This document shows, piece after piece, positions 1-11,700 of a DNA stretch of 11,700 bases. The translations under genes and the position numbers were made by a program. Source of the DNA: a virus (taxonomy: Duplodnaviria > Heunggongvirae > Uroviricota > Caudoviricetes); IMG/VR virus record IMGVR_UViG_2657244940_000002, positions 1 to 11,700 of that record, one strand, 5' to 3'. The notes under the pieces are model-generated. The model was not told the origin of the DNA. It did not search any database and saw nothing but the letters and a program-made list of their open reading frames with translations. Position 1 is the first letter of the stretch. Each line of letters begins with the position of its first letter.

Positions 1-84
1 CAGCAGTATCGGGATGGTTGGGCACTGCGCTTGAATTTATGGATTTCAAGAGTCATGAATAGTAACTATTTGATAATTAATAAA

Positions 85-1380
85 TTAATTTTGCACCACC
101 TCGTTTTGGGGCATGGTTGGGGCAAATTCGCTTAGCTGTGTATTTAACAGGGCTACCTGTGCATTATTGTTTTCAGACATCCATTTCCCGTATACCTGAA
201 ACACCATTTGCGCATCTGCATGTCCCATCTGGTTTGCTATGAATGCCGGGTTGGCACCGGCTGTCAGCGACCAGCAGGCATAAGTATGTCTCGACTGATA
301 TGATTTGCGGTGGCGGAGGCCAGCGCGCTTTATCGCTGCGTCCCACATCTGCCTTATTGAGTCAACGGTAAAATGGTCACCATAATTTTTTACTCTCGCT
401 GACACTTCAGGTTGAAAAACAAAGGTGCATTTTTGTTTTTCTGTTCTGCCGAACTCTCTGAGGTGAACGTCAATAATATGTTCTTTGCTCAGCCTCGTTA
501 GTGTCATCTGACTCCTGAGAGCGTCGATTGCAGGCTTGATAAGGTGAATTACCCGATTGGTACCAGCCTGTGTTTTCGGTACCGTAAAACGATCTTTTGC
601 TAAATTTCTCCTGATCATCATTGTTCCATTTTTCAGATCTATATCCTCCCACCCAAGCGCACACAGTTCACCAGGGCGAATGCCTGTATAAACAGAAACA
701 CACCATAAATTTTTGGCCTGCTGATTTCTGCAGGCGTCGATAAGACGGATAAATTCCTCCCGTGAAAGAGGATCAGGAATGGTTCTTGATTCCTTTAATG
801 GCGAGATCCCCTTAAACGGATTATCTGCCAGGTAACCGTTATCAACACCGAACTGGAACACGGCGTAAAGATTTGTCATGTAATTATTTACGGTGACAGC
901 CGATCTCCCCGGTTGCGTAACAATATAATTACTTTTGGGGATCTGGTATCCAGTAAGTAATTCTTTACGTACCGCCAGCAATTTTTCTTTATTAATCGAC
1001 GAGGCAAGATTTTTTTCACCGATTATGCTCAGAATATTTTTGATGACGGCACGGTACGTGTTGAGTGACGTTTTTGCGACTTCCGTTTCTTTCAGTGCCA
1101 GAAATTTTTCAGCCAGTTCCTTTATGGTTAAATCTTGTCGGGCCTCACCAAATTTTTCCAGATTGTGTGAGGAGGGAAACTGTTTTGCATAGTCGAAAAC
1201 GCCGGTTTTTATTGCATAACAAACAGAGGCGCGCAGCTCACCTGCAACGCGCCTGTTTTTTGTCGTGTCAGGAACCCCCAGATTTTCCCTGACTCTTACA
1301 CCTTTATAAACAAACCAGATACGTAATTTCCCTCCATGGTTTTCCACGCCTGTCGGATATTTCATTTTAGCTTCTCTCAT
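85..1380 (-). CDS. int: Phage tyrosine integrase (site-specific recombinase)
   Basis: 431-aa ORF. C-terminal catalytic region shows the tyrosine-recombinase pattern (…LRHRKSYQSRHTYACW…GHADAQMVFQVYGKWM). A small Xis-like ORF lies directly upstream on the same strand. An alternative start at 1365 (MKYPTG…) has a slightly better Shine-Dalgarno context (AGAGAAG) than the ATG at 1380. Confidence 0.9.
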   Translation of the reverse strand: MREAKMKYPTGVENHGGKLRIWFVYKGVRVRENLGVPDTTKNRRVAGELRASVCYAIKTGVFDYAKQFPSSHNLEKFGEARQDLTIKELAEKFLALKETEVAKTSLNTYRAVIKNILSIIGEKNLASSINKEKLLAVRKELLTGYQIPKSNYIVTQPGRSAVTVNNYMTNLYAVFQFGVDNGYLADNPFKGISPLKESRTIPDPLSREEFIRLIDACRNQQAKNLWCVSVYTGIRPGELCALGWEDIDLKNGTMMIRRNLAKDRFTVPKTQAGTNRVIHLIKPAIDALRSQMTLTRLSKEHIIDVHLREFGRTEKQKCTFVFQPEVSARVKNYGDHFTVDSIRQMWDAAIKRAGLRHRKSYQSRHTYACWSLTAGANPAFIANQMGHADAQMVFQVYGKWMSENNNAQVALLNTQLSEFAPTMPQNEVVQN

Positions 1381-1399
1381 TGGTTAGTATTGTTTTTAG

Positions 1400-1651
1400 T
1401 CAAGTAAGATGACGTCTTGGTCTTGCTGATGCCTGACGTTCAATCCAGCGATCAATTTCTTCCAGGTTGTAAAAGCATGGGCTGTTATCCCATGGCATAC
1501 CGTCATGGGCTACATGCTTATATTCCCTTCCTTCCATAAACGATTTTTCCCTGGCTTTTTTTAGCGTTCCCTTTTTTATTCCTTTCAGCGCAATTAGCTG
1601 TTCTTCGGATACCCATTTACCGGGAGAGACAATCATGATTACTTCGCTCAT
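1400..1651 (-). CDS. xis: Excisionase-like small protein (Xis/DUF1233-like)
   Basis: 83-aa basic ORF ending 20 nt upstream of the integrase start, the usual xis-int arrangement. Family assignment is from position, size and charge only, not a verified match. Confidence 0.55.
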   Translation of the reverse strand: MSEVIMIVSPGKWVSEEQLIALKGIKKGTLKKAREKSFMEGREYKHVAHDGMPWDNSPCFYNLEEIDRWIERQASARPRRHLT

Positions 1652-1720
1652 CGCTTTTATCTCTTACTTCAGATGAGCGCCGGTTGCAGAATACCAGTCA
1701 CAACCGGCGGTGGTTGAACA

Positions 1721-4201
1721 TTAAAAATCAGCCTGACTCGGGATCAGTTTTTGTATCGTAGCTGTAACGTATTTTGCCTGGTGACGGGCGTCATCCAGTG
1801 CATTGTGGCGCACGCCTTCGAATGGAATAACGGTTCTGGCATCAAAGTCGATTGTTTTTCCCAGCTCAACGATTGTGCGTACATCGCGATCGTTGTGGTA
1901 GCGCCACGGGCAGGGGATGTCCAGACGTTCGTATGAGGTGCGCAAAATTGCGTTATCGAAAGTCGCATCATTACCCCATACCTGAACGAATTTTTCATCT
2001 GAGTATTCGTTGATGAACTCCCGAAACTGCGAAAGGGCATCCTTCAGTTTTACCTGGTCTGTTAAAATGGCAGCTCTGGCTTCACTGGACTGCTTCAGCC
2101 ACCATTCGATGGTTCCACCGTCAGGAACAGCCCCTGTATTCATTGCGTCAGTCAGACTGATAACGATATAAAATACTGGCCCGATTTCCCCTGTTTGTGG
2201 GTCGAAGAAAACCGCACCAATAACCACGATGGGCGCATTGGTGTTGGTTCCCATTGTTTCAAGGTCGATCATCAAGTGGTACCACACTCTGCTGGTGGAT
2301 GTGATAACGTGATGACCGTTCACCGCAATTAAGGGATCTGCCGTCTCGCCAGTTTCATTATCGCTGGCGTGGTCCTGAGCGCTGCCAGCATTCTCCTTGT
2401 GTGGATGTTCAGCGCCTTCCATTTCCTCCGGATCATTTTCCTGAACTTCAACCTGATTCTCTTCATTGAATGTTTCCTGGTATGTTGCGTCGCCCATCAC
2501 CGCGCCACAATCAGGGCAGTTGCCGCCGCCGGTCTGACCGCAGGCGGTGCAGATCTTTTCCGGTTCCTGTTGCACTACTGGTTCAGGTTGTTTCGTTTCT
2601 GGCTCATTTTGTAACGCATTTGGGCTGTTTTGTTCCGCTTTCTGGCCGTTCTGTTCCGTTTCTTGCTGGTTCTGGTTCACAGAATCGCGGGTTTCCATCC
2701 CCTTCACCCATTTCGGATCATTCGGATCGCTAATTCCTGCAACAAATTCACCACGTGATACTGCAAGCAGTTCATCGGCGTCAGGCTGGCTGATATTGGC
2801 TGCCTGCATAATGTTGTTTACTTCGTCAGCGGTAACTTTTACCGGCCCTGGTTGTGCGGTCGTGTCAGATGCACCAGTATTTTGTTGTGAACCTGAGTAT
2901 GTACTGTTTTTGCGGACGAAATATTCTTCTTTCGTGATTTCAGTAGCCCCGGCAGCCAGTGCCTTATCCAGACCAGAAAGTTTGTTTGCGCGACCGTATT
3001 TTTCGCCATCCTTGTCGGTGAAGAGGAAGTAGAACGGCCCCTCACGCTCTACAGATGGTTCGACTTCCACTTTGCATTCGGTTTTTTCGTTGTCCGGAAT
3101 TGCCGTTTCCACTGCATCAGTTTCTGGTACTGGCGACGAGAGAGTATCAGTTGCGATCTGATTTGTTCCTTCATCTTCAAACACGCCCTTTGTAGTCAGG
3201 TATTCAGTAATGTATTTGTTCAGTGCCACAGGGTCTTTGTGAATGTCGATCGGACGCTCACGGACAAGGCCAAAAATAGTCTGGCGGTCGTAGCGAAGGG
3301 CATCAGGCTGTTTGCGCATTGATGCTGAGATACGCTTCCAGTCTTCGCGGTCGTTGTTGATAACTTCATTTTTTGCCCAGCGATGGATGCTGCCGTCAAT
3401 GTTTCCGGCATCAATGTCACCAGGCCACAGAGCGTAGGCCAGTTCATCATCCAGTGTTTTCCATGTCTGCTTATATTCGCGACGAATGACTGCAGTGACA
3501 GGGGAGATATTTTCTGCTGAGTTTTCAGTGTGCTGTCGGTTGACTCTGGCGCGGGCGAGATCAACAGCAGACGTGTATTTTCCGGTTTCCTTGCGTTCAC
3601 CTTCGCGACGTTTTTTCCAGATGCGCATCTCTGCCTGAATTTCGGGCCATTTAGCTCCAGGCTTACATTTATGCTTAACCCACCCGATGGCATGCAACTT
3701 AAGTTCTGGATACATGGCGTTAACTTCTGGCATTTTCATCAACGCTTCAACGATATGTCCGTCGAATGTTGCCATGTCTTCCTGCAACAGTTCCTGTGCA
3801 CTAATCACCATATCAACGGTGATGTTTTCACATGTGTCGAACTTAACCATGACAGCGTTCTGTACTTCAGGGGCCAGCTTGTCAAAAGTGACGTTCATCG
3901 GATCTGATTCAGTCTCAACCGGGACAAAGGAAGCTGACTCCTCATCCCAGCGGTTTTCCTGCATATATTCAGCATCCCAGGAATCGAGGGCAGGGCGGGG
4001 TATACCGGGTTTATCCTCGCAAACAAGAAATTTATAAGCGCAGTCCTGAGCAGCCGGATAATGTTCCAGGAATTGCCAGTGAAATTTTGCGCGGGCGCGA
4101 CGTTCATCACCGGCTTCAATGGCAGTGGCTACAGCGACTGCACCTTCTTCCTTTATTGCCTGTTCGTCCGGAATGGCGGCGCAAATAAAGACTTTACTCA
4201 T
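1721..4201 (-). CDS. Large phage exonuclease with C-terminal DEDDh (DnaQ-like) 3'-5' exonuclease domain
   Basis: 826-aa ORF with GAGG about 11 nt upstream of the ATG. C-terminal ~190 aa (nt 1724-2284) carry the three DEDDh motifs: MIDLETMG (Exo I), WGNDATFDN (Exo II), HNALDDARHQA (Exo III). Central Cx2C-x11-Cx2C zinc ribbon (CTACGQTGGGNCPDCG, nt ~2506-2551) flanked by acidic Q/E/P-rich linkers. It occupies the exo/recE slot of lambdoid prophages. Confidence 0.85.
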   Translation of the reverse strand: MSKVFICAAIPDEQAIKEEGAVAVATAIEAGDERRARAKFHWQFLEHYPAAQDCAYKFLVCEDKPGIPRPALDSWDAEYMQENRWDEESASFVPVETESDPMNVTFDKLAPEVQNAVMVKFDTCENITVDMVISAQELLQEDMATFDGHIVEALMKMPEVNAMYPELKLHAIGWVKHKCKPGAKWPEIQAEMRIWKKRREGERKETGKYTSAVDLARARVNRQHTENSAENISPVTAVIRREYKQTWKTLDDELAYALWPGDIDAGNIDGSIHRWAKNEVINNDREDWKRISASMRKQPDALRYDRQTIFGLVRERPIDIHKDPVALNKYITEYLTTKGVFEDEGTNQIATDTLSSPVPETDAVETAIPDNEKTECKVEVEPSVEREGPFYFLFTDKDGEKYGRANKLSGLDKALAAGATEITKEEYFVRKNSTYSGSQQNTGASDTTAQPGPVKVTADEVNNIMQAANISQPDADELLAVSRGEFVAGISDPNDPKWVKGMETRDSVNQNQQETEQNGQKAEQNSPNALQNEPETKQPEPVVQQEPEKICTACGQTGGGNCPDCGAVMGDATYQETFNEENQVEVQENDPEEMEGAEHPHKENAGSAQDHASDNETGETADPLIAVNGHHVITSTSRVWYHLMIDLETMGTNTNAPIVVIGAVFFDPQTGEIGPVFYIVISLTDAMNTGAVPDGGTIEWWLKQSSEARAAILTDQVKLKDALSQFREFINEYSDEKFVQVWGNDATFDNAILRTSYERLDIPCPWRYHNDRDVRTIVELGKTIDFDARTVIPFEGVRHNALDDARHQAKYVTATIQKLIPSQADF

Positions 4202-4281
4202 GTTGTTTTAACCTCATTACAGATTTAAGGGTGAACAAATCTCTGCCATTGCTGGCATATAAAAATGAAACCGGATATTAA

Positions 4282-4485
4282 TTACGGTGCTGTTTTAAGT
4301 CCTGCCGGGATTTCGTTATTATCCATGTGAATAACTTTATCGACCGGATAGCAGTTACCGGGAATTTTTTGTTCTGCTGCGGCAGCCATGCATTCTTTCA
4401 TTGAACCGTAAATGTCAATAACCATGTCAACAGGCTCGCCAGTATTAAGAAAAACAGTCAGAGTGAGGGCAATAGTAGTATTCAT
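4282..4485 (-). CDS. ydfD: YdfD-like small membrane (lysis-type) protein
   Basis: 67-aa ORF starting at the internal ATG (MNTTIALTLTVFLNTGEPV…) with a hydrophobic N-terminal segment. Its ATG overlaps the dicB stop as ATGA. Synteny dicB-ydfD matches Qin prophage. The longer track ORF (to 4539) would overlap dicB. Confidence 0.6.
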   Translation of the reverse strand: MNTTIALTLTVFLNTGEPVDMVIDIYGSMKECMAAAAEQKIPGNCYPVDKVIHMDNNEIPAGLKTAP

Positions 4486-4670
4486 TGCCAGTATCCTTTT
4501 TGCATCGGGCGTAAACGTGCCAGCATTGAAAGAATGCATATTTTATTTAATAGCTCCCGTTCGTGTTTTCTCTTATTAATGGCATCTTCAGTAAATACAG
4601 GGTTACTGATTCTGACACCAATTTCAAAACAACCTTCAGACGTATTGACGTTTGGTAATAACGTTTCCAT
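4482..4670 (-). CDS. dicB: Cell-division inhibitor DicB
   Basis: 62-aa product METLLPNVNTSEGCFEIGVRISNPVFTEDAINKRKHERELLNKICILSMLARLRPMQKGYWQ closely matches my recollection of E. coli K-12 DicB (62 aa). GAGG lies 8 nt upstream of the ATG at 4670. The 94-aa track ORF is an upstream extension with no RBS. Confidence 0.8.
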   Translation of the reverse strand: METLLPNVNTSEGCFEIGVRISNPVFTEDAINKRKHERELLNKICILSMLARLRPMQKGYWQ

Positions 4671-4853
4671 TATCGCGTCCTCAACAATGAATTTTGTGAT
4701 GCGGTGCCTGGTGCCTCCAGGTGACGTTAACCAGTTAATAATTAACGCCGGATACAGAGAACCCACCCATAAGAACCAATACGGAAGTCAACTGGCCTTT
4801 TTAACTGTTCCGCGTGCGCTGAGCCGCATTCACCGCATCACAAAATTCACTTT

Positions 4854-4916
4854 AAAAGGGGCGGGTATCATGGGAAAAACAAAACGGATACCCGCCAAAA
4901 GGTAATCAACATGGGT
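4854..4916 (-). ncRNA. dicF: DicF-like small RNA (divergent homolog) with intrinsic terminator
   Basis: Minus-strand sequence …CCATGTTGATTACCTTTTGGCGGGTATCCGTTTTGTTTTTCCCATGATACCCGCCCCTTTT, about 175 nt upstream of dicB. It has a 10-bp stem (GGCGGGTATC/GATACCCGCC) followed by CCTTTT. The TTTGGCGG(G)TATC…GTTTT…CCGCCC(C)TTTT skeleton resembles my recollection of K-12 DicF, but the 5' and loop regions differ. Exact ends are uncertain. Confidence 0.45.
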
Positions 4917-5326
4917 TGTTGCAGCGGGGTTGTCACTCAGGCGTATGGTCAACCTGACAACCCGGTGGACATTTGCGAGGAACGGAGAACCCCCGCCATA
5001 CTTACCGCCGCGCCATTTCGCGGAGTGCCACAACCGGAAGCGCACGGTCGACGAAAATTTAACGACAGGCTATCTATGAACCAGCAACCTCGCCGTGCGC
5101 TTTCGCGTTATGCTCTGACTTTTCAGAGAAATATCCTTTCAGTAAACTGTCAGTGCCGGATGCTCACCCGTGTCCGGCGCACACACTCCACCTCACCCGT
5201 GGAGAACTCCTTAATTACCAACCCTCAGGAGGGTGAATGTTAAAATCAACGCTTATTGCTAAATGCCTTTATCAAAATCGCATGGTAAGCAGCATTTCAA
5301 TAGGCGAATCTGTAGTTAAAAGTATT

Positions 5327-5352
5327 TTCGAAGAGTACTTTCGAAGAGTACT
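5327..5352. repeat. Perfect 13-bp tandem duplication (TTCGAAGAGTACT x2)
   Basis: Read directly: …AGTATT TTCGAAGAGTACT TTCGAAGAGTACT TTTC…. Each unit contains the palindromes TTCGAA and AGTACT. It sits in AT-rich DNA downstream of the 135-aa cargo ORF. Confidence 0.8.
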
Positions 5353-5460
5353 TTTCTGGGCGTGATTTTAATAAATGGAATACCAAATTACCGCCAGCAG
5401 TTTCAACGCGTATTCTGAAAGCAACTGAAAGAGCAAGTACAATTCGCGTTAACTATTTCA

Positions 5461-5868
5461 TTAAAGATTTGTGGGATCTTTGATATCCACAGAGCCTAAA
5501 GTATGTGCATATGGATGTGCTATTGTGCGCCCCTGTAAATTTGCATCGTTTTCTAAATCTTTTGATTTCAACAGAACATCAGCAAGACTCTGAATCATGC
5601 AGAGATAATCAAAAACAGTTGCCGTTTCTGTTCTGATTGCTGAAATAACATGACCATTCAGGCAAACAGAAATTACCCGTTCATCAATATCGTTTTTCTG
5701 TTTTTGATTATCAGAACCATATAGCCCTGAAAAAGCATTGCGCACATTACGAACCATATTATCGATGGTTTCTTTTTTGGTGTATGCCGGGTCAATTTTC
5801 ACCAGACTATCACCGAGTGTCGTTGCAGCAATTATCTGGATTTCTTTTGGTAAATCTTTAAATTCCAT
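5461..5868 (-). CDS. Hypothetical protein, AT-rich cargo (moron-like) gene inside the dicB operon
   Basis: 135-aa ORF (MEFKDLPKEIQIIAATTLGDSLVK…) with GAGG 7 nt upstream of the ATG. It starts 22 nt after the ydfC-like stop on the same strand. The local sequence is markedly more AT-rich than its flanks. No motif I recognise, and no predicted transmembrane segment. Confidence 0.7.
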   Translation of the reverse strand: MEFKDLPKEIQIIAATTLGDSLVKIDPAYTKKETIDNMVRNVRNAFSGLYGSDNQKQKNDIDERVISVCLNGHVISAIRTETATVFDYLCMIQSLADVLLKSKDLENDANLQGRTIAHPYAHTLGSVDIKDPTNL

Positions 5869-5890
5869 TATTAGCCTCGTTGGTTAACCA

Positions 5891-6109
5891 TTAACGTGGG
5901 TATGTAATCATTCTGGCAATGCTTAATGCCGCTGCTTTTTCCAGATTGGTGATATCCTGCTCCAGAGCGGACAGATTTTCAGCCTGCTTAGCCCTGGCTT
6001 CATTGGCCCATTTCAGGTCCTGCGCAGCCTTAATTTTCTGGTGCATCCACTCATAAAGTTCATCATCGGTATAGTCTGGCGCGATGATGACGGGTTCTCG
6101 TTTCTGCAT
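5891..6109 (-). CDS. ydfC: YdfC-like small protein (dicB operon)
   Basis: 72-aa ORF with GAGGAA 7 nt upstream of the ATG, in the position of ydfC (dicA-ydfA-ydfB-ydfC order as in Qin). Predicted helical/coiled-coil C-terminus. Confidence 0.65.
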   Translation of the reverse strand: MQKREPVIIAPDYTDDELYEWMHQKIKAAQDLKWANEARAKQAENLSALEQDITNLEKAAALSIARMITYPR

Positions 6110-6138
6110 ACTGATTCCTCGCGGTGCTGCTTCGCTTA

Positions 6139-6267
6139 TCAGCCGTTAGATTTTGCCGGGCTGGAAAGCGCCTGTTTAAATTCGCTGAAGCTGAGGGCTT
6201 CTTCGCCTTCGGCAAGGCCTTCGAAGTATTCTTCGTAAGCCTTTTCCATGATTGTGTCGAAATCCAT
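6139..6267 (-). CDS. ydfB: YdfB-like small protein (42 aa)
   Basis: Not in the ORF track (too short). Manual translation gives MDFDTIMEKAYEEYFEGLAEGEEALSFSEFKQALSSPAKSNG with AGGTGG upstream. Its ATG at 6267 lies immediately after the ydfA-like stop (6269-6271). Size and position match ydfB of Qin. Confidence 0.5.
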   Translation of the reverse strand: MDFDTIMEKAYEEYFEGLAEGEEALSFSEFKQALSSPAKSNG

Positions 6268-6268
6268 A

Positions 6269-6424
6269 TCACCCACCTGAATCTCTTTCCAGCCAGCGAC
6301 GCGCTCCAGATTCGGTTTTAAACGTTTTGCTTTTGGTATACGTCATTGCGGTGAACGTGCCGTCCTGGTTTGGAAACACGCCGTACACCAGAGATTCGTT
6401 GTTGCCAAGATCGATAGTATCCAT
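6269..6424 (-). CDS. ydfA: YdfA-like small protein (51 aa, DUF1391-like)
   Basis: Internal start of the 77-aa track ORF: MDTIDLGNNESLVYGVFPNQDGTFTAMTYTKSKTFKTESGARRWLERDSGG, with GAGG 5 nt upstream of the ATG at 6424. It is the first gene downstream of the predicted dicB-operon promoter. The longer N-terminal extension would run into the promoter. Confidence 0.6.
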   Translation of the reverse strand: MDTIDLGNNESLVYGVFPNQDGTFTAMTYTKSKTFKTESGARRWLERDSGG

Positions 6425-6501
6425 GCTGACCTCATTTCCCCTTAACGCCGGGGTAGCGGAACTGTTTGCTGAGAACACCGTGCGGTGTCTTGATGCAAGC
6501 A

Positions 6502-6555
6502 AGATTAGCTATGACTAACAATTTGGTCAAGCATTTTTGTTTGTCATGACTAACA
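6502..6555 (-). promoter_or_regulatory. dicB-operon promoter with DicA-type operators
   Basis: On the minus strand: TTGACC (plus 6525-6530), 17-bp spacer, TAATCT (plus 6502-6507), about 75 nt upstream of the ydfA-like ATG. The palindromic operator TTAGCTATGACTAA (6505-6518) overlaps the -10 and spacer. A related site TTGTCATGACTAACA (6541-6555) lies just upstream of the -35. Confidence 0.55.
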
Positions 6556-6565
6556 TTTTGGGCAA

Positions 6566-6599
6566 CCAAAAAGATAACGCATTGATTGCGTTATCTTTT
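6566..6599 (-). terminator. Intrinsic terminator at the 3' end of dicA
   Basis: Minus strand: CAAAAGATAACGCA-ATCAA-TGCGTTATC-TTTTTGG, a 9-11 bp stem, 5-nt loop and U-tract. It overlaps the dicA stop codon and sits between dicA and the downstream operon promoter. The plus-strand reading also ends in a T-rich tail, so it may act bidirectionally. Confidence 0.45.
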
Positions 6600-6998
6600 G
6601 TTTGTTCGTTGACGGGCTTTTAATAACTCTTCAAAGAGTTTGTTGAAATTTTTTACTCGGGCGCGCATCTCGGTGAGCTGAGCATCCTGTTCTGATTCAG
6701 GCAATGCATTAAAAAGCTCAAGGAGCTCATGTTCTTTGGGGGATAGAGCAACTGGCTCCTCAATAGGTGGTGATGGCTGCTTGTCTTCATCGCCAAATAG
6801 AATCCATGTTGGCGAGCACTGCAGTACTTTGCTGAGGGCAAAAAGATTCTTTCCTGTAGGTTCGCTATCATCCCGCTCCCATTGTGAAACCGATACGTGA
6901 GAAATTTTCAGGGCTTTAGCAAGAGACCTTTGGGTGTATTTGAGGTTTTTTCGGCGATATCTAATGCGTTCGCCAATGGTTAAATTTTTTGTATCCAT
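6591..6998 (-). CDS. dicA: Prophage repressor DicA (XRE-family HTH, P22 C2-like)
   Basis: 135-aa ORF with an N-terminal HTH (…YTQRSLAKALKISHVSVSQWERD…). It closely matches my recollection of K-12 DicA (same length). It is divergent from a cro-like gene, with palindromic operators in the intergenic region. Confidence 0.85.
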   Translation of the reverse strand: MDTKNLTIGERIRYRRKNLKYTQRSLAKALKISHVSVSQWERDDSEPTGKNLFALSKVLQCSPTWILFGDEDKQPSPPIEEPVALSPKEHELLELFNALPESEQDAQLTEMRARVKNFNKLFEELLKARQRTNKR

Positions 6999-7081
6999 AG
7001 TTAGCTAATGCTAAATCTTATTGACTATGTTTTTGTTAACATCTATTTTGTTAGTTATGGCTAACAATTAAGGTGCTTTAA
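6999..7081. promoter_or_regulatory. Divergent dicA/dicC promoter-operator region
   Basis: Two 14-bp palindromic operators, TTAGCTAATGCTAA (7001-7014) and TTAGTTATGGCTAA (7051-7064), match the TTAG-N6-CTAA pattern seen upstream of ydfA. A plus-strand promoter candidate is TTGACT (7021-7026), 17 bp, TATTTT (7044-7049), with AAGGTG before the dicC ATG. Confidence 0.6.
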
Positions 7082-7312
7082 ATGCTTAAAACTGACGCAC
7101 TTTTGTATTTCGGTTCAAAAACAAAACTTGCACAAGCTGCTGGTATTCGTTTGGCTTCGCTTTATAGCTGGAAAGGGGAGCTAGTACCTGAAGGTCGCGC
7201 GATGCGCCTGCAAGAGGCATCCGGCGGGGAACTTCAGTACGACCCCAAAGTTTATGACGAATATCGTAAGGCAAAGCGGGCGGGGCGGTTGAACAATGAA
7301 AATCACCCCTGA
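7082..7312 (+). CDS. dicC: Cro-like regulator DicC
   Basis: 76-aa ORF (MLKTDALLYFGSKTKLAQAAGIRLASLYSW…) divergent from dicA. It matches my recollection of K-12 DicC in size and sequence. Confidence 0.8.
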   Translation: MLKTDALLYFGSKTKLAQAAGIRLASLYSWKGELVPEGRAMRLQEASGGELQYDPKVYDEYRKAKRAGRLNNENHP

Positions 7313-7817
7313 ACAGGTTTGTGAGGCTCTGGATGCCTGGGTGTGCCGACCAGGAATGACACAGGAGCAGGCGACGATATTAATCACGGAAGCATTCTGG
7401 GCTCTGAAAGAACGCCCGAACATCGATGTTCAACGCGTCACGTTTAATGATGGCGAGGTTGATCAACGGGCGCTGGGCGTTAACCGGGTGAAGATATTCG
7501 AACGCTGGAAAGCTATCGACACCAGGGATAAGCGGAAAAAATTCACGGCGCTGATTCCGGCAATTATGGAGGCTATCCGGATTAATGATTTCAGGTTGTA
7601 TCGTGAAATTAGTGACGGAAAAAGCATCACGTACATGATCGCCGGGTTAAACAAAGAATATGGCGATGTGGTGGAGTCCGGGCTGCTTTTTGCAGATCCA
7701 GCTGTAGTGGATCGTGAAACTGACGAACTTATAGAAAAAGCCATTGCTTTCAAACTTGCGTATCGACAGCAATACCAACAAAAAGCTGGATGGAATTATG
7801 AGTCTTCTTTTTGCTGA
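7296..7817 (+). CDS. YdaT-like protein (CII-like regulatory domain family)
   Basis: 173-aa ORF whose start overlaps the dicC end by 17 nt. The central segment …KRKKFTALIPAIMEAIRINDFR… resembles the K-12 Rac YdaT motif (…KIQKLIPAILAILPRELR…), and YdaT sits in the same position after the cro-like gene in Rac. Family call is by resemblance only. Confidence 0.6.
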   Translation: MKITPEQVCEALDAWVCRPGMTQEQATILITEAFWALKERPNIDVQRVTFNDGEVDQRALGVNRVKIFERWKAIDTRDKRKKFTALIPAIMEAIRINDFRLYREISDGKSITYMIAGLNKEYGDVVESGLLFADPAVVDRETDELIEKAIAFKLAYRQQYQQKAGWNYESSFC

Positions 7818-8763
7818 ACGCCCACTGGTTATAAACACGCAGCTGGCAATGAAAATTGGCTTAAACGAAGCCATTGTTTTGCAACAACTGCACTACTGGT
7901 TGAGAGATACCAACTCCGGCATGGAATGTGATGGTGTTCGCTGGATTTATAACACAACGGAACAATGGCTGGAACAGTTCCCGTTCTGGTCAGAGTCAAC
8001 GTTAAAGCGCGCGTTTGCAAGTCTGAAAACGCTGGGGCTTATGCGTTGTGAAAAGCTCAATAAATCAAAGCGCGATATGACCAATTTCTACACGATCAAC
8101 TACGGGAGCGAGCTTTTAGATGGTGGCAAAGTGAGCGAATCCATCGGTTCAAAATGCGCCGCTCCATCAGGTCAAAATGACACGATGGAAGAGGTCAAAA
8201 TGAAACGCTCCATTGGTTCAAAACGGCTCAATGTCATCGGGTCAAAATGGCCTGATGATCTTACAGAGAATACAACAGAGATTACTACAGAGAATAAAAA
8301 CACTTCTCGTCCGGAAGCTTCGCAACCGGACCCGCAGACGGTTGAACAGGATTTTTTAACCCGACACCCTGACGCGGTTGTGTTCAGTGCAAAAAAACGC
8401 CAGTGGGGCAACCAGGAAGATTTGGCGTGTGCGCAGTGGATCTGGGGACGAATCGTGAGTCTTTACGAGCAGGCCGCCAGCGATGATGGCGAGATTTCGC
8501 GACCGAAAGAACCCAACTGGACCGCATGGGCCAACGACGTGCGCACAATGCGGATGCTGGATGGCAGAACTCACAGACAAATTTGTGAAATGTTTGGTCG
8601 GGCGCAGCGGGATCCATTCTGGGTAAAAAATATCATGAGTCCGTCAAAGCTTCGCGGAAAATGGGATGAACTGGTTATCCGCCTGGGGCGTTCGTCTGTA
8701 CAGCGTTGTGTGAATCATATTTCTGAGCCGGATACCGAAATTCCGCCGGGGTTCAGGGGGTAA
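7798..8763 (+). CDS. Phage replication initiator (O-like replisome organizer) containing the origin iterons
   Basis: The likely start is the ATG at 7798 (MSLLFAERPLVINTQLAMKIGLNEAIVLQQLHYWL…); the track ORF begins at a TTG at 7744. The N-terminal region looks like the winged-helix replisome-organizer type. The gene contains a direct-repeat iteron array and is followed by a DnaC-like loader. Confidence 0.75.
   Translation: MSLLFAERPLVINTQLAMKIGLNEAIVLQQLHYWLRDTNSGMECDGVRWIYNTTEQWLEQFPFWSESTLKRAFASLKTLGLMRCEKLNKSKRDMTNFYTINYGSELLDGGKVSESIGSKCAAPSGQNDTMEEVKMKRSIGSKRLNVIGSKWPDDLTENTTEITTENKNTSRPEASQPDPQTVEQDFLTRHPDAVVFSAKKRQWGNQEDLACAQWIWGRIVSLYEQAASDDGEISRPKEPNWTAWANDVRTMRMLDGRTHRQICEMFGRAQRDPFWVKNIMSPSKLRGKWDELVIRLGRSSVQRCVNHISEPDTEIPPGFRG
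8146..8250. repeat. Iteron array (putative origin of replication) inside the initiator gene
   Basis: Five direct repeats of GGT(T)CAAAA(T/C)G starting at 8146, 8170, 8193, 8215 and 8240 (spacing 22-25 bp, about two helical turns). They are followed by ACAGAGA(A/T)T repeats in 8263-8300. In the protein they appear as the repeated (S)IGSK motif. Confidence 0.6.
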
Positions 8764-8768
8764 CGGCC

Positions 8769-9515
8769 ATGAAAAATATCGCGGCAGGTGGTGTTCTTGA
8801 GCGTATCCGTAAGCTGACCCCGCAGCATGTAATCGCGCCGTACCGGACAGTGGATGAGTGGCGCGAGTGGCAACTGGCTGAAGGGCGAAAACGTAGCGAG
8901 GAGATCAACCGCCAGAATCGCCAGTTGCGGGTGGAAAAAATCCTGAATCGTTCGGGCATCCAGCCTCTGCACAGCAAATGCTCGTTTGCGAATTATCAGG
9001 TGCAGAACGACGGGCAAAAACATGCGCTGAGCCAGGCAAAATCCATCGCTGACGAACTGATGACCGGGTGCACGAATTTTGTGTTCAGCGGTAAGCCGGG
9101 TACCGGAAAGAACCACCTTGCAGCCGCCATTGGCAATCATCTTCTGGCGAAAGGTCGCAGCGTGATTGTGATAACGGTGGCTGATGTGATGCTGGCGTTA
9201 CACAACAGCTACGACAACAAAAACTCAGGCGAAAAATTTTTACAGGGGTTGTGTGATGTTGACCTGCTTGTCCTGGATGAAATCGGAATGCAGCGGGATA
9301 CGCGCAACGAGCAGGTCACACTGAACCAGATAGTCGACCGCAGAACGGCTTCGATGCGTAGTGTCGGAATGCTGACGAACCTGAACCACGTAGCGATGAG
9401 TACGCTTCTTGGCGAGCGTGTGATGGACCGCATGGTCATGAACGGTGGTCGCTGGGTGAATTTTAACTGGGAGAGCTGGCGTTCGAATGTCAGACACCTG
9501 AGGGTTGTGAAGTAA
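8769..9515 (+). CDS. DnaC-like helicase loader (IstB-like AAA+ ATPase)
   Basis: 248-aa ORF with Walker A (GKPGTGKNHLAAAIG) and Walker B (DLLVLDEIG). It starts 6 nt after the initiator stop. Confidence 0.85.
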   Translation: MKNIAAGGVLERIRKLTPQHVIAPYRTVDEWREWQLAEGRKRSEEINRQNRQLRVEKILNRSGIQPLHSKCSFANYQVQNDGQKHALSQAKSIADELMTGCTNFVFSGKPGTGKNHLAAAIGNHLLAKGRSVIVITVADVMLALHNSYDNKNSGEKFLQGLCDVDLLVLDEIGMQRDTRNEQVTLNQIVDRRTASMRSVGMLTNLNHVAMSTLLGERVMDRMVMNGGRWVNFNWESWRSNVRHLRVVK

Positions 9516-9529
9516 TTTCAGGAGGACTT

Positions 9530-9946
9530 ATGGTAAAAGTTTTTACTCCCGAACAACGGGAAGAAGTAAAGGCGCGTATTGTGGAACTGGTACGCAGAGA
9601 TGGTAGGAAAACGCGTAAACAACTGGAAAATGAAACAGGGGCGACGAGACATCTGATTGAAGTTCTGGCGAAAGAACTGGTAGACAGTGGTGTTGTATAT
9701 GGTTCAGGGCATGGAATATTCCCTTCTGAGCAGGTACGTAAAGACTGGATAAAAGCCCATAAAGAGATGTCTAAAGGTGCAGCGAAAAAGAAGAGCGACC
9801 CTGGCCTGATTTATTCATTACCAGATGGAGAGATACGCCACTACGACAGGCGTCAGAACATAATCTGTCTCGAGTGCCGGAAAAGCAAGGTTATGCAGCG
9901 TGTGCTGGCGTTTTATCAGGGTAATTTTCAGGAGGTGATGGCGTGA
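9530..9946 (+). CDS. Hypothetical early-region protein (138 aa)
   Basis: Strong AGGAGG Shine-Dalgarno before the ATG. Basic N-terminus. Its stop overlaps the next start (ATGA-type overlap at 9943-9946). No family recognised. Confidence 0.65.
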   Translation: MVKVFTPEQREEVKARIVELVRRDGRKTRKQLENETGATRHLIEVLAKELVDSGVVYGSGHGIFPSEQVRKDWIKAHKEMSKGAAKKKSDPGLIYSLPDGEIRHYDRRQNIICLECRKSKVMQRVLAFYQGNFQEVMA

Positions 9947-10248
9947 GGGTGAGGGTTTATATCGCCGGTCCAATGACGGGGTATGAAAATTTCAACCGTG
10001 AGGCGTTTCACAAGGCAGAAGAGGAACTGAAACGGGAAGGGCATACCGTTTTAAATCCGGCTGTGCTTCCGGATGGGCTGACACAGCCGCATTACATGGA
10101 TATTTGCATGGCAATGATTCGTTGTGTGGATGCGATTTACATGCTGAAAGGCTGGCAGCGGTCAGCAGGCGCTAAGGCAGAACTGGCGCTGGCGGAGAAA
10201 CTGGGGCATGCGGTGATTTTTCAGGAGACAGCCAGTGTGCAAGACTAA
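9943..10248 (+). CDS. DUF4406-like protein (nucleoside 2-deoxyribosyltransferase-like fold)
   Basis: 101-aa ORF beginning MRVRVYIAGPMTGYENFN…, the N-terminal YIAGPMTG-type motif of DUF4406 / deoxyribosyltransferase-like small phage proteins. Assigned from motif memory only. Confidence 0.6.
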   Translation: MRVRVYIAGPMTGYENFNREAFHKAEEELKREGHTVLNPAVLPDGLTQPHYMDICMAMIRCVDAIYMLKGWQRSAGAKAELALAEKLGHAVIFQETASVQD

Positions 10249-10690
10249 TTACCAGGCATTACGTGAACGTTATTCACCAATTCAGGTGCCGGAATGTTCT
10301 GTTTGTGGCGATGAAATGTCGATACAGCGCATATTTTCCAGAGCGCATATTGTGTATGCCTGCACAGGTGAGGGGGATGATGGATATTTTAAAACTGGTC
10401 GAACTTTTGCGGATGAACATTACCTGAAATCGCGCGTAACCGTCGTTGATGTTAGCGATCCTGACGTACTGGCTTTACTGAAAGAGCTGGAAGTTAAAGA
10501 CAAACGCATTGCAGAATTGACAGACGCGCTTACACAAATGATTAATGCGCACAAAACCACAATTCGTTTTGGTCATGAACGCATAACTGAATGTGGTGGT
10601 GATTGCGACTCGCCGGAAAAGATGATTTCAGAAAATCCGGATATCAGAATGGCAGAGGCTGTTTTGAGAGCAGGAATAAAAACTGAATAA
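10235..10690 (+). CDS. Hypothetical protein with Cys clusters (possible zinc-binding), GTG start
   Basis: 151-aa ORF starting at a GTG with AGGAGA 6 nt upstream. It overlaps the previous gene by 14 nt. Contains CxxC (ECSVCGDE) and CGGDC cysteine clusters and a central coiled-coil-like segment. Confidence 0.6.
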   Translation: MCKTNYQALRERYSPIQVPECSVCGDEMSIQRIFSRAHIVYACTGEGDDGYFKTGRTFADEHYLKSRVTVVDVSDPDVLALLKELEVKDKRIAELTDALTQMINAHKTTIRFGHERITECGGDCDSPEKMISENPDIRMAEAVLRAGIKTE

Positions 10691-10780
10691 TTAAATTTAG
10701 CACAGCAAATAAAATTTAATCCTTAACCGGAGGGATTTCTGCACCCTCAGAACATCAGGAGGCCGCCTGAAAGGGCGGTA

Positions 10781-11203
10781 ATGAAAATGACTGAATTAAC
10801 AAAAGAACAATTAATCGAAGAAGCCAAATTAAAAATAGCGATTACGAAATGCCACCCCAATTCAGGGATGGCGCGAGTAGAGGGCGAGTTATTCAAAATT
10901 GCACTGGCATCGCTGGAAGCAGAGCCGATAGCGTGGCGATATCGCTACGTGAAAAAAGGTGTTATGGACTCTCAGGGGGAGTTGTGGGTTGGTGACTGGA
11001 AATATGTACCGAAAAAAGAGGATTGTAACGACAGGCCGAACTATGAAATTCAGGCCTTATTCACTGCCCCACCAGTCCCGGTTACATCAGAAGAACTGGT
11101 TAAAGCTGTGCACTTTTATGAACAACTAAAACGCGAAAATCCACCAGCATCCGGCAACCAGATTAATGGGTTAACTATGCCGGTTAAACGACCAGCCGAC
11201 TGA
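10781..11203 (+). CDS. Hypothetical phage protein (140 aa)
   Basis: ORF with good coding appearance, preceded by a 90-bp intergenic region containing short hairpins. No family recognised. Confidence 0.6.
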   Translation: MKMTELTKEQLIEEAKLKIAITKCHPNSGMARVEGELFKIALASLEAEPIAWRYRYVKKGVMDSQGELWVGDWKYVPKKEDCNDRPNYEIQALFTAPPVPVTSEELVKAVHFYEQLKRENPPASGNQINGLTMPVKRPAD

Positions 11204-11414
11204 AAAACGGAAACCTGATTACAGATTCCCAGATAAGGCAATGAGCTACCTGGCGTAGAGTGGGCTGATAAGTATGGGGAATGTTTTACGATGAATACTT
11301 AGACTAAAGAGTTTGTAACGCTATGTAAGTGATTTTTTCTGGTTTAGATATTTATATGTCCGGCCAAATTGAGGTGTGTTTAAATGTAATTGCACATTGA
11401 TTGTAGGGGGAATA

Positions 11415-11546
11415 ATGAAAAACGCATTGCAGTTTTTGTTTGTTGCGTTCTGGTTGTTCGCATCATGTATGCCCATCATCTTCACAGCAAGGTATATGGA
11501 AAAAATTGATGTTTTGATATTCTGTCAGGATGTGCGCCGGTGGTAA
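11415..11546 (+). CDS. Possible small hydrophobic peptide (43 aa)
   Basis: Manual ORF MKNALQFLFVAFWLFASCMPIIFTARYMEKIDVLIFCQDVRRW with AGGGGG 4 nt upstream of the ATG and a hydrophobic N-terminus. It overlaps the 3' end of the convergent partial ORF, so it is uncertain. Confidence 0.25.
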   Translation: MKNALQFLFVAFWLFASCMPIIFTARYMEKIDVLIFCQDVRRW

Positions 11547-11700
11547 TCGACTGAATAATCTCCCCCGTCGCCACGTTAATGACCGATAACGCATTCGCTT
11601 CAAATGAAGTCGCATAAATCAACTTTTCATCCAGGCTTAATGCCAGCGATCTGACGCCCTGATCTTTACAGCCACCACAATGTTTGACTGACTTTTCTTT
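11482..11700 (-). CDS. Partial CDS (C-terminal 72 aa; 5' end beyond the window), beta-propeller-repeat-like
   Basis: Minus-strand frame is open from the window edge to the TGA at 11482-11484: …GVRSLALSLDEKLIYATSFEANALSVINVATGEIIQSITTGAHPDRISKHQFFPYTLL*. The SVINVATGEII pattern resembles YVTN-type beta-propeller repeats. It may be a host or cargo gene at or beyond the prophage edge. Confidence 0.4.
   Translation of the reverse strand, partial: KEKSVKHCGGCKDQGVRSLALSLDEKLIYATSFEANALSVINVATGEIIQSITTGAHPDRISKHQFFPYTLL

Follow-up and report, generated by a model that had tools for sequence, protein, structure and literature searches.

A probable replication origin within the initiator gene of a lambdoid Escherichia coli prophage, and a repeat block shared by initiator genes across bacterial phyla

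The initiator gene and its repeats

The stretch of DNA analysed here (the window) comprises 11,700 nucleotides (nt), positions 1 to 11,700 of the virus record IMGVR_UViG_2657244940_000002, and carries an early region of a lambdoid prophage, in which integrase and excisionase genes are present. Our subject is the gene for its replication initiator, an O-like protein of 321 amino acids (aa), together with the repeats that lie in the linker-coding part of this gene: an array of direct repeats (iterons), a block of three 12-nt units with the consensus ACAGAGAWTACW, also called the ACAGAGAAT block, and an inverted repeat (Table 1). The gene has full-length relatives in phages PhiR42_1, HannyBb and mEp460, and at least part of it occurs in 3076 of 5426 complete E. 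coli genomes; its product is labelled 'hypothetical protein' almost everywhere in public records.

No Pfam family was found for the initiator, a sequence search of the PDB returned no match, and NCBIfam gave nothing beyond the 22-residue DnaT-like tail. BLASTP against lambda O aligned the C-terminal domain alone, with 35% identity over 148 aa (aa 147-294; E = 2e-27), and placed the peptide TENTTEITTEN opposite residues from the AT-rich tract of lambda. On these alignments the initiator is a partial member of the lambda O family, to which its C-domain belongs, while its N-domain and the accompanying helicase loader do not. An AlphaFold (AF2) model, computed from 14 sequences, shows an N-domain (aa 14-100) with the order helix-helix-strand-strand-helix-helix-strand-strand and predicts disorder for aa 84-177, where the predicted local distance difference test score (pLDDT) is 22-44; this disordered part covers all residues encoded by the iterons and the block. 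The best Foldseek matches of the N-domain are the N-domains with which staphylococcal RepA_N proteins bind iterons (5kbj, 4pql and 4pt7; probability 0.98-1.0, E 0.07-0.13), followed by many winged-helix regulators. The C-terminal tail, IPPGFRG, may be a short peptide that recruits a helicase or its loader. The same tail is present on Rac YdaU (L008 3954-3974), whose N-domain and middle part are unrelated, and the variants IPAGFRG, VPAGFRS and IPDGFRG are found on initiators with other C-domains (for example at the gene ends in L005 and L006).

An earlier reading of the sequence alone (the original prediction) had placed within the initiator coding sequence, at 8140-8300, five iterons with a periodicity of about 23 bp, followed by three ACAGAGA(A/T)T repeats. 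All of these were recovered, and all lie within the open reading frame (ORF) of the initiator. The spacing of the five iteron cores is 23, 23, 23 and 24 nt, and Tandem Repeats Finder reports a period of 23 at 8140-8213. The consensus had to be reworded: the repeats stand, but GGT(T)CAAAA(T/C)G as first written, searched as GGTYCAAAAYG, yields three sites only, with one mismatch allowed, and the corrected core is G[G/T]TCAAAA[T/C]G. This core has five exact matches in the whole window, all on the plus strand, versus 0.16 expected by chance, and five or more were found in none of 200 shuffles. Neither repeat searches nor the core scan revealed another iteron-like array in the window. At the position of the degenerate iteron 0, relatives of the gene carry a good copy, GGTCAAAGTG.

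Each iteron displays dyad symmetry around its A-tract, with 6 to 9 of 12 pairs complementary, versus 3.0 +/- 1.5 for random window centres. The summed dyad score of 36 (14.9 expected) was not reached in 1e5 resamplings. The unit CCATCAGGTCAAAATGACACGATGG is an example of this semi-palindromic design.

The three ACAGAGAWT matches begin at 8263, 8275 and 8287, 3' of the iterons, with a period of 12 nt that was also detected by Tandem Repeats Finder (8263-8296); their number compares with 0.19 expected by chance, and three or more occurred in none of 200 shuffles. The block is 70% A+T, and its top strand is 68% purine, close to the 67% of the corresponding lambda tract. Nearest-neighbour energies place the start of the least stable 40-nt window of the gene at 8261, with a free energy of -44.3 versus a gene mean of -55.4 (standard deviation 3.6), so that the block lies 3 standard deviations under the gene mean. 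The inverted repeat lies 3' of the block; in relatives with other C-domains the sequence at its position is GTCCGGTTGC...GCAACCAGAC.

Some known motifs were compared with the block by eye. The best DnaA-box candidate, TTATCCACA, agrees at 6 of 9 positions at best and was rejected, and DnaA-trios, oriC 13-mers and -10/-35 hexamers gave no convincing fit. The primase trinucleotides CTG (bottom strand) and CTA (top strand) are present in the block but too short for judgement. A consensus scan found no sigma-70-like promoter within the array or the block.

Table 1. Features of the window and their coordinates
Feature	Position	Strand	Remarks
Replication initiator gene, O-like, 321 aa	7798-8763	+	phrog_391 'replication initiation O-like', E = 1.1e-93
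N-terminal domain coding region, ~aa 1-111	7798-8130	+	presumed iteron-binding winged helix; weak to moderate support
Iteron 0, degenerate	8124-8133	+	TGGCAAAGTG; 7/10 matches, one period 5' of iteron 1; 67% copy in repeat family
Iteron 1	8141-8165	+	core GTTCAAAATG 8147-8156; dyad 6/12 pairs
Iteron 2	8164-8188	+	core GGTCAAAATG 8170-8179; full unit CCATCAGGTCAAAATGACACGATGG; dyad 9/12 pairs
Iteron 3	8187-8211	+	core GGTCAAAATG 8193-8202; dyad 6/12 pairs
Iteron 4	8210-8234	+	core GTTCAAAACG 8216-8225; dyad 6/12 pairs
Iteron 5	8234-8258	+	core GGTCAAAATG 8240-8249; full unit TCATCGGGTCAAAATGGCCTGATGA; dyad 9/12 pairs
Block, three 12-nt units	8263-8298	+	ACAGAGAATACA / ACAGAGATTACT / ACAGAGAATAAA
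Inverted repeat 3' of block	8309-8331	+	GTCCGGAAGC-TTC-GCAACCGGAC; 8/10 complementary; outer six GTCCGG/CCGGAC perfect
C-terminal helical domain coding region, aa 183-298	8344-8691	+	lambda O C-domain homologue; pLDDT 65-84
C-terminal tail IPPGFRG	8740-8760	+	like end of E. coli DnaT (NF002770, E = 0.0032)
826-aa protein	ORF 1721-4201	-	C-terminal 3'-5' exonuclease domain
DicA-like repressor gene	6591-6998	-	immunity region DicA/DicC-like, i.e. Qin-type
Promoter-like site	7021-7049	+	TTGACT-17-TATTTT
Cro/DicC-like gene	7082-7312	+	P22_Cro, E = 1.3e-11
YdaT/CII-like gene	7296-7817	+	YdaT_toxin E = 1.7e-5; phrog_163 CII-like E = 7e-41; overlaps initiator start
DnaC-type helicase loader gene, 248 aa	8769-9515	+	Pfam IstB_IS21, E = 2.6e-18

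Constraint on the DNA and distribution of the block

Repeats inside a coding sequence might be no more than a low-complexity or repetitive linker selected in the protein, with no function as DNA. A disordered linker is indeed predicted for the region, the period of the block, 12 nt, is divisible by three, and iteron copies 1, 4 and 5 all yield GSK. The five cores, however, lie at codon offsets 1, 0, 2, 1 and 1 and encode GSK, GQN, VKM, GSK and GSK, respectively. Since a period of 23 nt cannot be divided by three, copies 2 and 3 fall into the other two frames, and the reiterated (S)IGSK motif that had been predicted exists for copies 1, 4 and 5 and is absent from copies 2 (GQN) and 3 (VKM). With cores in all three reading frames, a peptide repeat is ruled out as the explanation of the array.

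A codon alignment of the N-terminal half was made from 83 distinct homologues, whose protein identities to the window's initiator begin at 49% (median 71%). Conservation at codon positions 1, 2 and 3 is 0.84, 0.90 and 0.62 in the N-domain and 0.85, 0.87 and 0.82 in the iteron cores; the codon periodicity of conservation is thus lost in the array, and the third-position values of cores and N-domain differ with p = 1e-4 (Mann-Whitney). Raised third-codon conservation in the cores, together with copies in all three frames, is in line with the earlier suggestion that a constraint on the DNA shapes the linker.

A similar pattern is seen in the block. Over 283 units the consensus is A-C-A-G-A-G-A-[A/T]-T-A-C-[A/T], and the usual number of units is three (119 of 143 loci). 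Position 8, where a change exchanges Asn for Ile, varies (A 0.54, T 0.31), whereas the synonymous positions 3 and 6 are nearly fixed. A scan for all synonymous codings of T-E-N-T-T-E returned matches in initiator context that use ACA or ACT, GAG (rarely GAA) and AAT; in unrelated ORFs all codons are used for the same peptide. In 106 distinct ORFs from the genome scan described below, 91% of the Glu codons in the block zone are GAG, versus 37% in the remainder of the same ORFs, and ACA and ACT make up 95% of the Thr codons, versus 55%, figures that are inflated because the search pattern fixed two units per locus. Outside the pattern-fixed positions, arithmetic on the same counts still gives about 74% GAG, and the third unit, which is free of the search pattern, matches the consensus at 61-85% at the eight near-invariant positions (1-7 and 9). 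A Burkholderia phage with 65% GC keeps the ACA/ACT codons, and non-coding copies of the block exist, one of them with an in-frame stop. In view of these observations, we consider a purely peptide-level origin of the repeats next to impossible.

Initiator genes of phages and prophages from Proteobacteria, Bacillota and further phyla carry near-identical ACAGAGAWTACW blocks in the corresponding place. The ACAGAGAAT units are thus a motif common to very diverse initiator genes and not specific to this phage. In viral contigs, the exact 19-mer ACAGAGAATACAACAGAGA was found at 120 loci at least; the frame of the block is identical in all 120 listed, and, among the matches listed, loci with a complete ORF have the block midway in an ORF of about 300 aa. 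A blastn search of phage records with the 47-nt block returned 91 records, whose hosts include E. coli, Klebsiella, Erwinia, Acinetobacter, Pseudomonas, Burkholderia, Vibrio, Bacillus, Staphylococcus and Geobacillus. All but one of the listed matches lie under a coding sequence annotated as a replication-initiator-type or hypothetical protein; the exception and the unannotated records carry no feature at the block site. Six of these loci, read directly, follow the same plan, and in the 65%-GC Burkholderia phage the block forms an AT-rich island.

Two consecutive units, ACAGAGAWTACWACAGAGAWTAC, were then sought in 185,579 species genomes. At least 120 loci were found, versus about 0.1 expected in 596 Gb, as estimated at equal base frequencies; the prevalence of the block is a lower bound. 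Among the matches listed are Gamma- and Alphaproteobacteria, Campylobacterota, Bacilli, Clostridia, Chloroflexota, Planctomycetota, Nitrospinota and others, and 112 of the 122 are in the expected frame within an ORF that measures 150 aa or more; the median length is 167 aa on the upstream side and 146 aa on the downstream side. Matches in Nostocales (L173), in an archaeal metagenome-assembled genome (L192) and at locus L251 fall in low-complexity proteins in another frame (DYNR- or DYYG-type repeats) and were rejected as false positives; one further cyanobacterial match is present beside that in Nostocales. Counting as an iteron-like array at least three copies of a 9-mer at a spacing of 20-26 nt or double that, we found one just 5' of the block in 99 of 118 stretches (about 84%), versus 3/109, 1/114 and 6/87 in three sets of control stretches from these same loci. 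The spacings in these arrays show a sharp peak at 22-23 nt.

The protein domains on either side of the block are far from constant. In the viral contigs, clustered by identity thresholds, the block joins at least nine N-domain types to at least eleven C-domain types; single-linkage clustering of the N-domains at E = 1e-6 merged nearly all of them and was abandoned in favour of these thresholds. The iteron sequence follows the N-domain type (examples are GGTCAAAATG, GAGGGCAAAT, ATGCAGGAAA, AAAGGGCCAA and CATGTGATCA), the arrays of all types have a period of 22-24 nt and end about one period 5' of the block, and all N-domain types share an (I/L)LxQIxYW-like helix. We define here a class of initiator genes that carry a ACAGAGAWTACW block of two to five 12-nt units, in the T-E-N/I-T frame, midway in an ORF of about 300 aa, with at least three lineage-specific repeats at 21-24 nt directly 5'. 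The initiator gene of the window, with three units and with five iterons ending 23 nt upstream of them, is a member of this class.

Homology boundaries around the block can be sharp. The 'O' genes of Shiga toxin (Stx) phages, in which both the N- and the C-domain are unrelated, share with the window only the 40 nt at 8257-8296, at 97.5% identity, and carry a different array, of GGGAAAACC.ATTTCG type, directly 5' of four ACAGAGAWT units. In O157:H7 (L004 1506-2468) and other strains, the C-terminal half of the gene, from just 3' of the block (window 8297 on), is about 91% identical. The N-domain to which it is fused there is an unrelated one of helix-turn-helix type, has TTGACCCGTCAAAT-type repeats of its own (peptide STVDPSN) and lacks the ACAGAGAAT block; the mosaic breakpoint of this half is located at the putative origin.

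Block and boundaries could accordingly mark, in the main, a recombination joint, that is, linker sequence at which the N- and C-modules of initiators are swapped and which is kept alike by frequent exchange, not by a part in initiation. This would fit the range of domain types that one block links, the 40 nt shared with the Stx-phage initiators, and the occurrence of the E. coli C-half (query 500-966) with unrelated N-halves, where homology begins directly 3' of the block. Exchange would be unable, however, to maintain near-identity among phages of E. coli, Acinetobacter, Bacillus, Staphylococcus and Burkholderia, and the motif is also near-identical in genomes of further phyla (Planctomycetota, Chloroflexota). 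Nor would it account for the fixed distance between block and iterons in 84% of loci, the retention of the block in non-coding copies, or its coincidence with the stability minimum, as in lambda. We regard a joint as an unlikely main function of the block; such a role is likely in addition to that of an origin, with which it is compatible.

Copies outside long initiator ORFs were also seen. In Planococcus soli (L187, 40-300), four TTGTCACTATGGAAAATAAC-type repeats with a 23-nt spacing and, 3' of them, a block that contains an in-frame TAG make up a non-coding copy. A small regulator-like ORF lies 3' of this copy, a small-terminase gene is located at a distance of about 2.5 kb, and there is no long ORF in the stretch (239 nt of upstream sequence); the copy may represent a decayed initiator gene or else a satellite-like element. 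Rolling-circle Bacillus plasmids of 8.4-8.9 kb with iterons and three copies of ACAGAGATTAC are represented by pBSG3 (NC_014104.1, L282 717-888) and six relatives from Bacillus velezensis, Bacillus amyloliquefaciens and Bacillus sp. (H127-H133). On pBSG3 the sequence takes the form of an orphan fragment of 180 bp that shares 76% identity with the central part of the initiator gene of phage PM1, has no N-domain and measures only 88 aa from stop to stop; possibly this is an orphan phage origin through which the plasmid can exploit the initiator of a helper phage.

The repeats as a putative origin

Taken together, these features very probably identify 8124-8331 as the origin of vegetative replication of a lambdoid (Qin/Rac-like) E. 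coli prophage, situated within the linker-coding part of its own initiator gene. The original prediction had proposed a putative origin here, and it holds up in that all sequence-level features of a lambda-type intragenic origin are present and that comparison indicates constraint on the repeats as DNA. In the linker-coding part the iterons are followed by an unstable asymmetric tract and this by an inverted repeat, which is the order found in the lambda origin, and hundreds of unrelated loci have the same architecture.

By analogy with lambda, a mechanism may be sketched. Dimers of the N-terminal winged-helix domain of the initiator would bind to the semi-palindromic 23-nt iterons, five or six in number, and assemble into an O-some-like nucleoprotein complex. 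The resulting stress would open the adjoining least stable, purine-asymmetric block of three ACAGAGAWTACW units, upon which the lambda-O-like C-domain, possibly together with the DnaT-like IPPGFRG tail, could bring in the host DnaB via the DnaC-type loader of the phage. Transcription of the early-right unit (7021-7817, plus strand) from its promoter would pass through the origin. The binding, unwinding and loading steps are all inferred from this analogy.

Several points weigh against this assignment. Support for the element as an origin, and for the initiator family, is comparative throughout. The first 111 residues of the initiator match no Pfam family at E values up to 10, neither Phage_rep_O nor RepA_N; the model of the N-domain is of moderate confidence (pLDDT 55-70), and its fold matches are weak (E ~0.1, TM-score relative to the target ~0.5). 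The A+T content of the block is only 70%, a stability below that of the block is seen in intergenic parts of the window (around 7019, for instance), and in AT-rich phages other parts of the gene are less stable. The loci used for the block statistics were gathered by a match to the block, so that conservation inside the matched units is circular and partly inflated; this circularity does not extend to the unmatched units, the scan of synonymous codons, the iteron control stretches, the example with high GC or the non-coding copies. Third-position conservation near the block could also partly reflect recombination.

Iterons can have other uses. On plasmids they take part in autoregulation and copy control, and the repeats in the window might likewise be initiator binding sites that act as a roadblock, an operator or a means of titration ('handcuffing'), with the origin elsewhere. 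The repeats do lie within the transcribed initiator gene, and the placement of the origin here is a comparative one. Control sites of this kind would, however, leave unexplained a complete set of origin elements (iterons, unstable asymmetric tract and inverted repeat) in the lambda order and the lack of a second iteron-like array in the window. Orphan iterons with a block, on small plasmids and in a non-coding stretch near phage-type genes, also fit a cis-acting origin better. We consider it very unlikely that the repeats serve control while replication starts at another site.

The sequence of the block is more strictly kept than melting would seem to demand. Ease of melting alone is insufficient to explain its conservation, because in AT-rich phages the block is not the stability minimum, and the strict conservation of the 12-mer implies that its sequence is in some way recognised in addition to melting easily. 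Our preferred reading of the block is a presumed unwinding and helicase-entry tract with an extra sequence-specific requirement. Candidates for its reader are a conserved surface of the initiator N-domain, a universal replication protein, or an R-loop of the purine-rich transcript.

The last of these raises the question whether the block acts through the transcript or its translation, as a purine-rich R-loop or primer RNA or as a translational pause that favours binding in cis, and not through unwinding of the duplex. In every case the block is found on the coding strand of a transcribed gene, its RNA would be purine-rich, its conservation exceeds the needs of melting, and the lambda origin requires transcriptional activation (PMC7466680). 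No RNA family was matched, however, in Rfam searches of 7000-9600 at E up to 1 and of the whole window at the gathering score, and inspection of the purine-rich sequence, with no folding computed, showed no evident self-complementarity. Non-coding and orphan copies exist, and ACA, GAG and AAT are presumably not rare codons in all host phyla. The R-loop version is in any case a variant of the origin explanation and not a true alternative to it. A role in the transcript in place of the duplex therefore appears quite unlikely to us.

Returning to the block as part of an origin, we tentatively suggest that three ACAGAGAWTACW units constitute a cis-acting helicase-entry element that is read sequence-specifically and is common to phages of many phyla. 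Its reader could be a conserved single-strand-binding surface of the winged-helix initiator superfamily, or a replication protein that is universally conserved, such as the DnaB-family helicase or the primase. If true, this would explain the retention of synonymous sites from E. coli to Bacillus and to genomes of Planctomycetota and Chloroflexota, the portability of the block among unrelated N- and C-domains, and the orphan copies on plasmids and possibly satellites, which could borrow the initiator of a helper phage.

An origin inside the initiator gene is textbook knowledge for lambda, and the origin of the window is in itself ordinary; the unexpected result is the ACAGAGAWTACW block across phyla. 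Neither the motif nor the TENTTE peptide was found described in a phage context in about 8 million full texts, among which the older subscription literature is sparse, so that a prior description is possible; a paper on the replication regions of non-lambdoid Stx phages does not discuss origins. The analysis locates a probable origin for a prophage replication module of which over half of the complete E. coli genomes contain all or a part. It also describes a DNA motif of about 36 nt, conserved at synonymous sites across bacterial phyla within otherwise unrelated initiator genes, which offers a simple sequence signature for locating phage and prophage origins. The block also provides a defined target for work on DNA opening and helicase placement by winged-helix initiators, a question that stands even for lambda and the RepA_N plasmids, and it gives a possible account of how small plasmids or satellites with orphan copies exploit a phage initiator.

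Neighbouring genes and comparison with known systems

The initiator gene is preceded by a repressor, a Cro-like and a YdaT/CII-like gene and followed by the gene for a DnaC-type helicase loader (Table 1). The loader also matches phrog_50 (DnaC-like, E = 2.1e-84) and, with 499 bits and over the cut-off, NCBIfam PRK12377. In close relatives of the initiator (phage PhiR42_1, L001 4001-5429; L005 and L006), the next gene encodes LygF, PerC or Dam methylase and not a DnaC-like protein; a phage-encoded loader is therefore optional for this initiator family.

Three further features were seen elsewhere in the window. A 21-nt tandem repeat (2588-2671; 4 copies, 69% matches) lies within the minus-strand ORF for the 826-aa protein and is probably a peptide repeat, because its period is a multiple of three. 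Between a DUF1482 gene and a 135-aa minus-strand ORF, the 13-nt sequence AGTACTTTCGAAG is repeated 2.6 times in tandem (5321-5354; 95% matches). Immediately 3' of the end of the DicA-like repressor gene, 6569-6599 forms a hairpin with a 13-bp stem followed by a T-run, terminator-like on the plus strand.

In lambda and the Stx phages the origin, composed of iterons and an AT-rich tract, lies in the middle of gene O (PMC7466680), and the parallel with lambda drawn in the original prediction is borne out. As in lambda and in the Stx phages 933W and P27, both of which have six iterons, the repeats of the window occupy the part that codes for the linker between the DNA-binding and the loader-recruiting domains. 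The lambda-type origins have four to six direct repeats whose inverted arms meet at an A-tract (TCCCTCAAAACGAGGGA in lambda, CATCAGGTCAAAATGACACGATG in the window), and the annotated lambda iterons share the semi-palindromic design (ATCCCTCAAAACGAGGGA). The stability minimum of lambda O is the AT-rich tract directly after iteron 4 (-43.0 versus -54.7), with a purine bias like that of the block, and an inverted repeat, GTCAGAGAATTC...GAATCCTCTGAC, is found at the same relative position; the C-terminal domains are homologous, as described above. In contrast to lambda, the window has another iteron sequence and an N-domain that does not match Pfam Phage_rep_O. Its AT-rich tract consists of three conserved ACAGAGAWTACW units, which blastn does not find in lambda, its loader is a DnaC/IstB-type AAA+ ATPase and not a P-type protein, and its initiator ends in the DnaT-like IPPGFRG tail.

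RepA_N iterons have been described as semi-palindromic direct repeats with inverted arms that converge on a poly-A tract (PMC7145576), a design like that in the window. The N-domains of RepA_N initiators of plasmids and satellites (pSK41 and pTZ2162 RepA, Vibrio PLE RepA) are the best structural matches of the N-domain model (5kbj, 4pql and 4pt7; also 4ro3), albeit weak ones with E ~0.1, and both groups appear to combine a DNA-binding N-domain, presumed from the model in the case of the window, with a variable C-domain. The window initiator differs in having no match to Pfam RepA_N (PF06970) at E values up to 10 and in its lambda-O-like C-domain.

The Rac prophage has been reported to contain an active origin, oriJ (PMC3945230). 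Its ydaS-ydaT-ydaU-ydaV module has the gene order of the window, namely repressor, Cro-like, YdaT/CII-like, initiator and DnaC-like loader; YdaV is 80% identical to the loader of the window, and YdaU carries the same IPPGFRG tail. YdaU, however, is a DUF1376 protein with another N-domain, other internal repeats and no ACAGAGAAT block, and the immunity region of the window is DicA/DicC-like (Qin-type).

A parallel to the block itself is found in the 'replisome organizer' or DnaD-like initiators of phages of Gram-positive hosts (PM1, BtCS33, Staphylococcus phage 37 and Geobacillus PT9.1), which have the same architecture and nearly the same 12-mer. They combine a winged-helix-type N-domain with an (I/L)LxQIxYW-like helix, three to five lineage-specific iterons at 22-23 nt, ACAGAGAWTAC units and a variable C-domain, and their partners are a DnaB-type helicase, a G39P-type loader or a DnaC/DnaI-like ATPase. 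In contrast to these similarities, their protein identity to the initiator of the window is very low, their C-domains are of other types and their hosts belong to another phylum.

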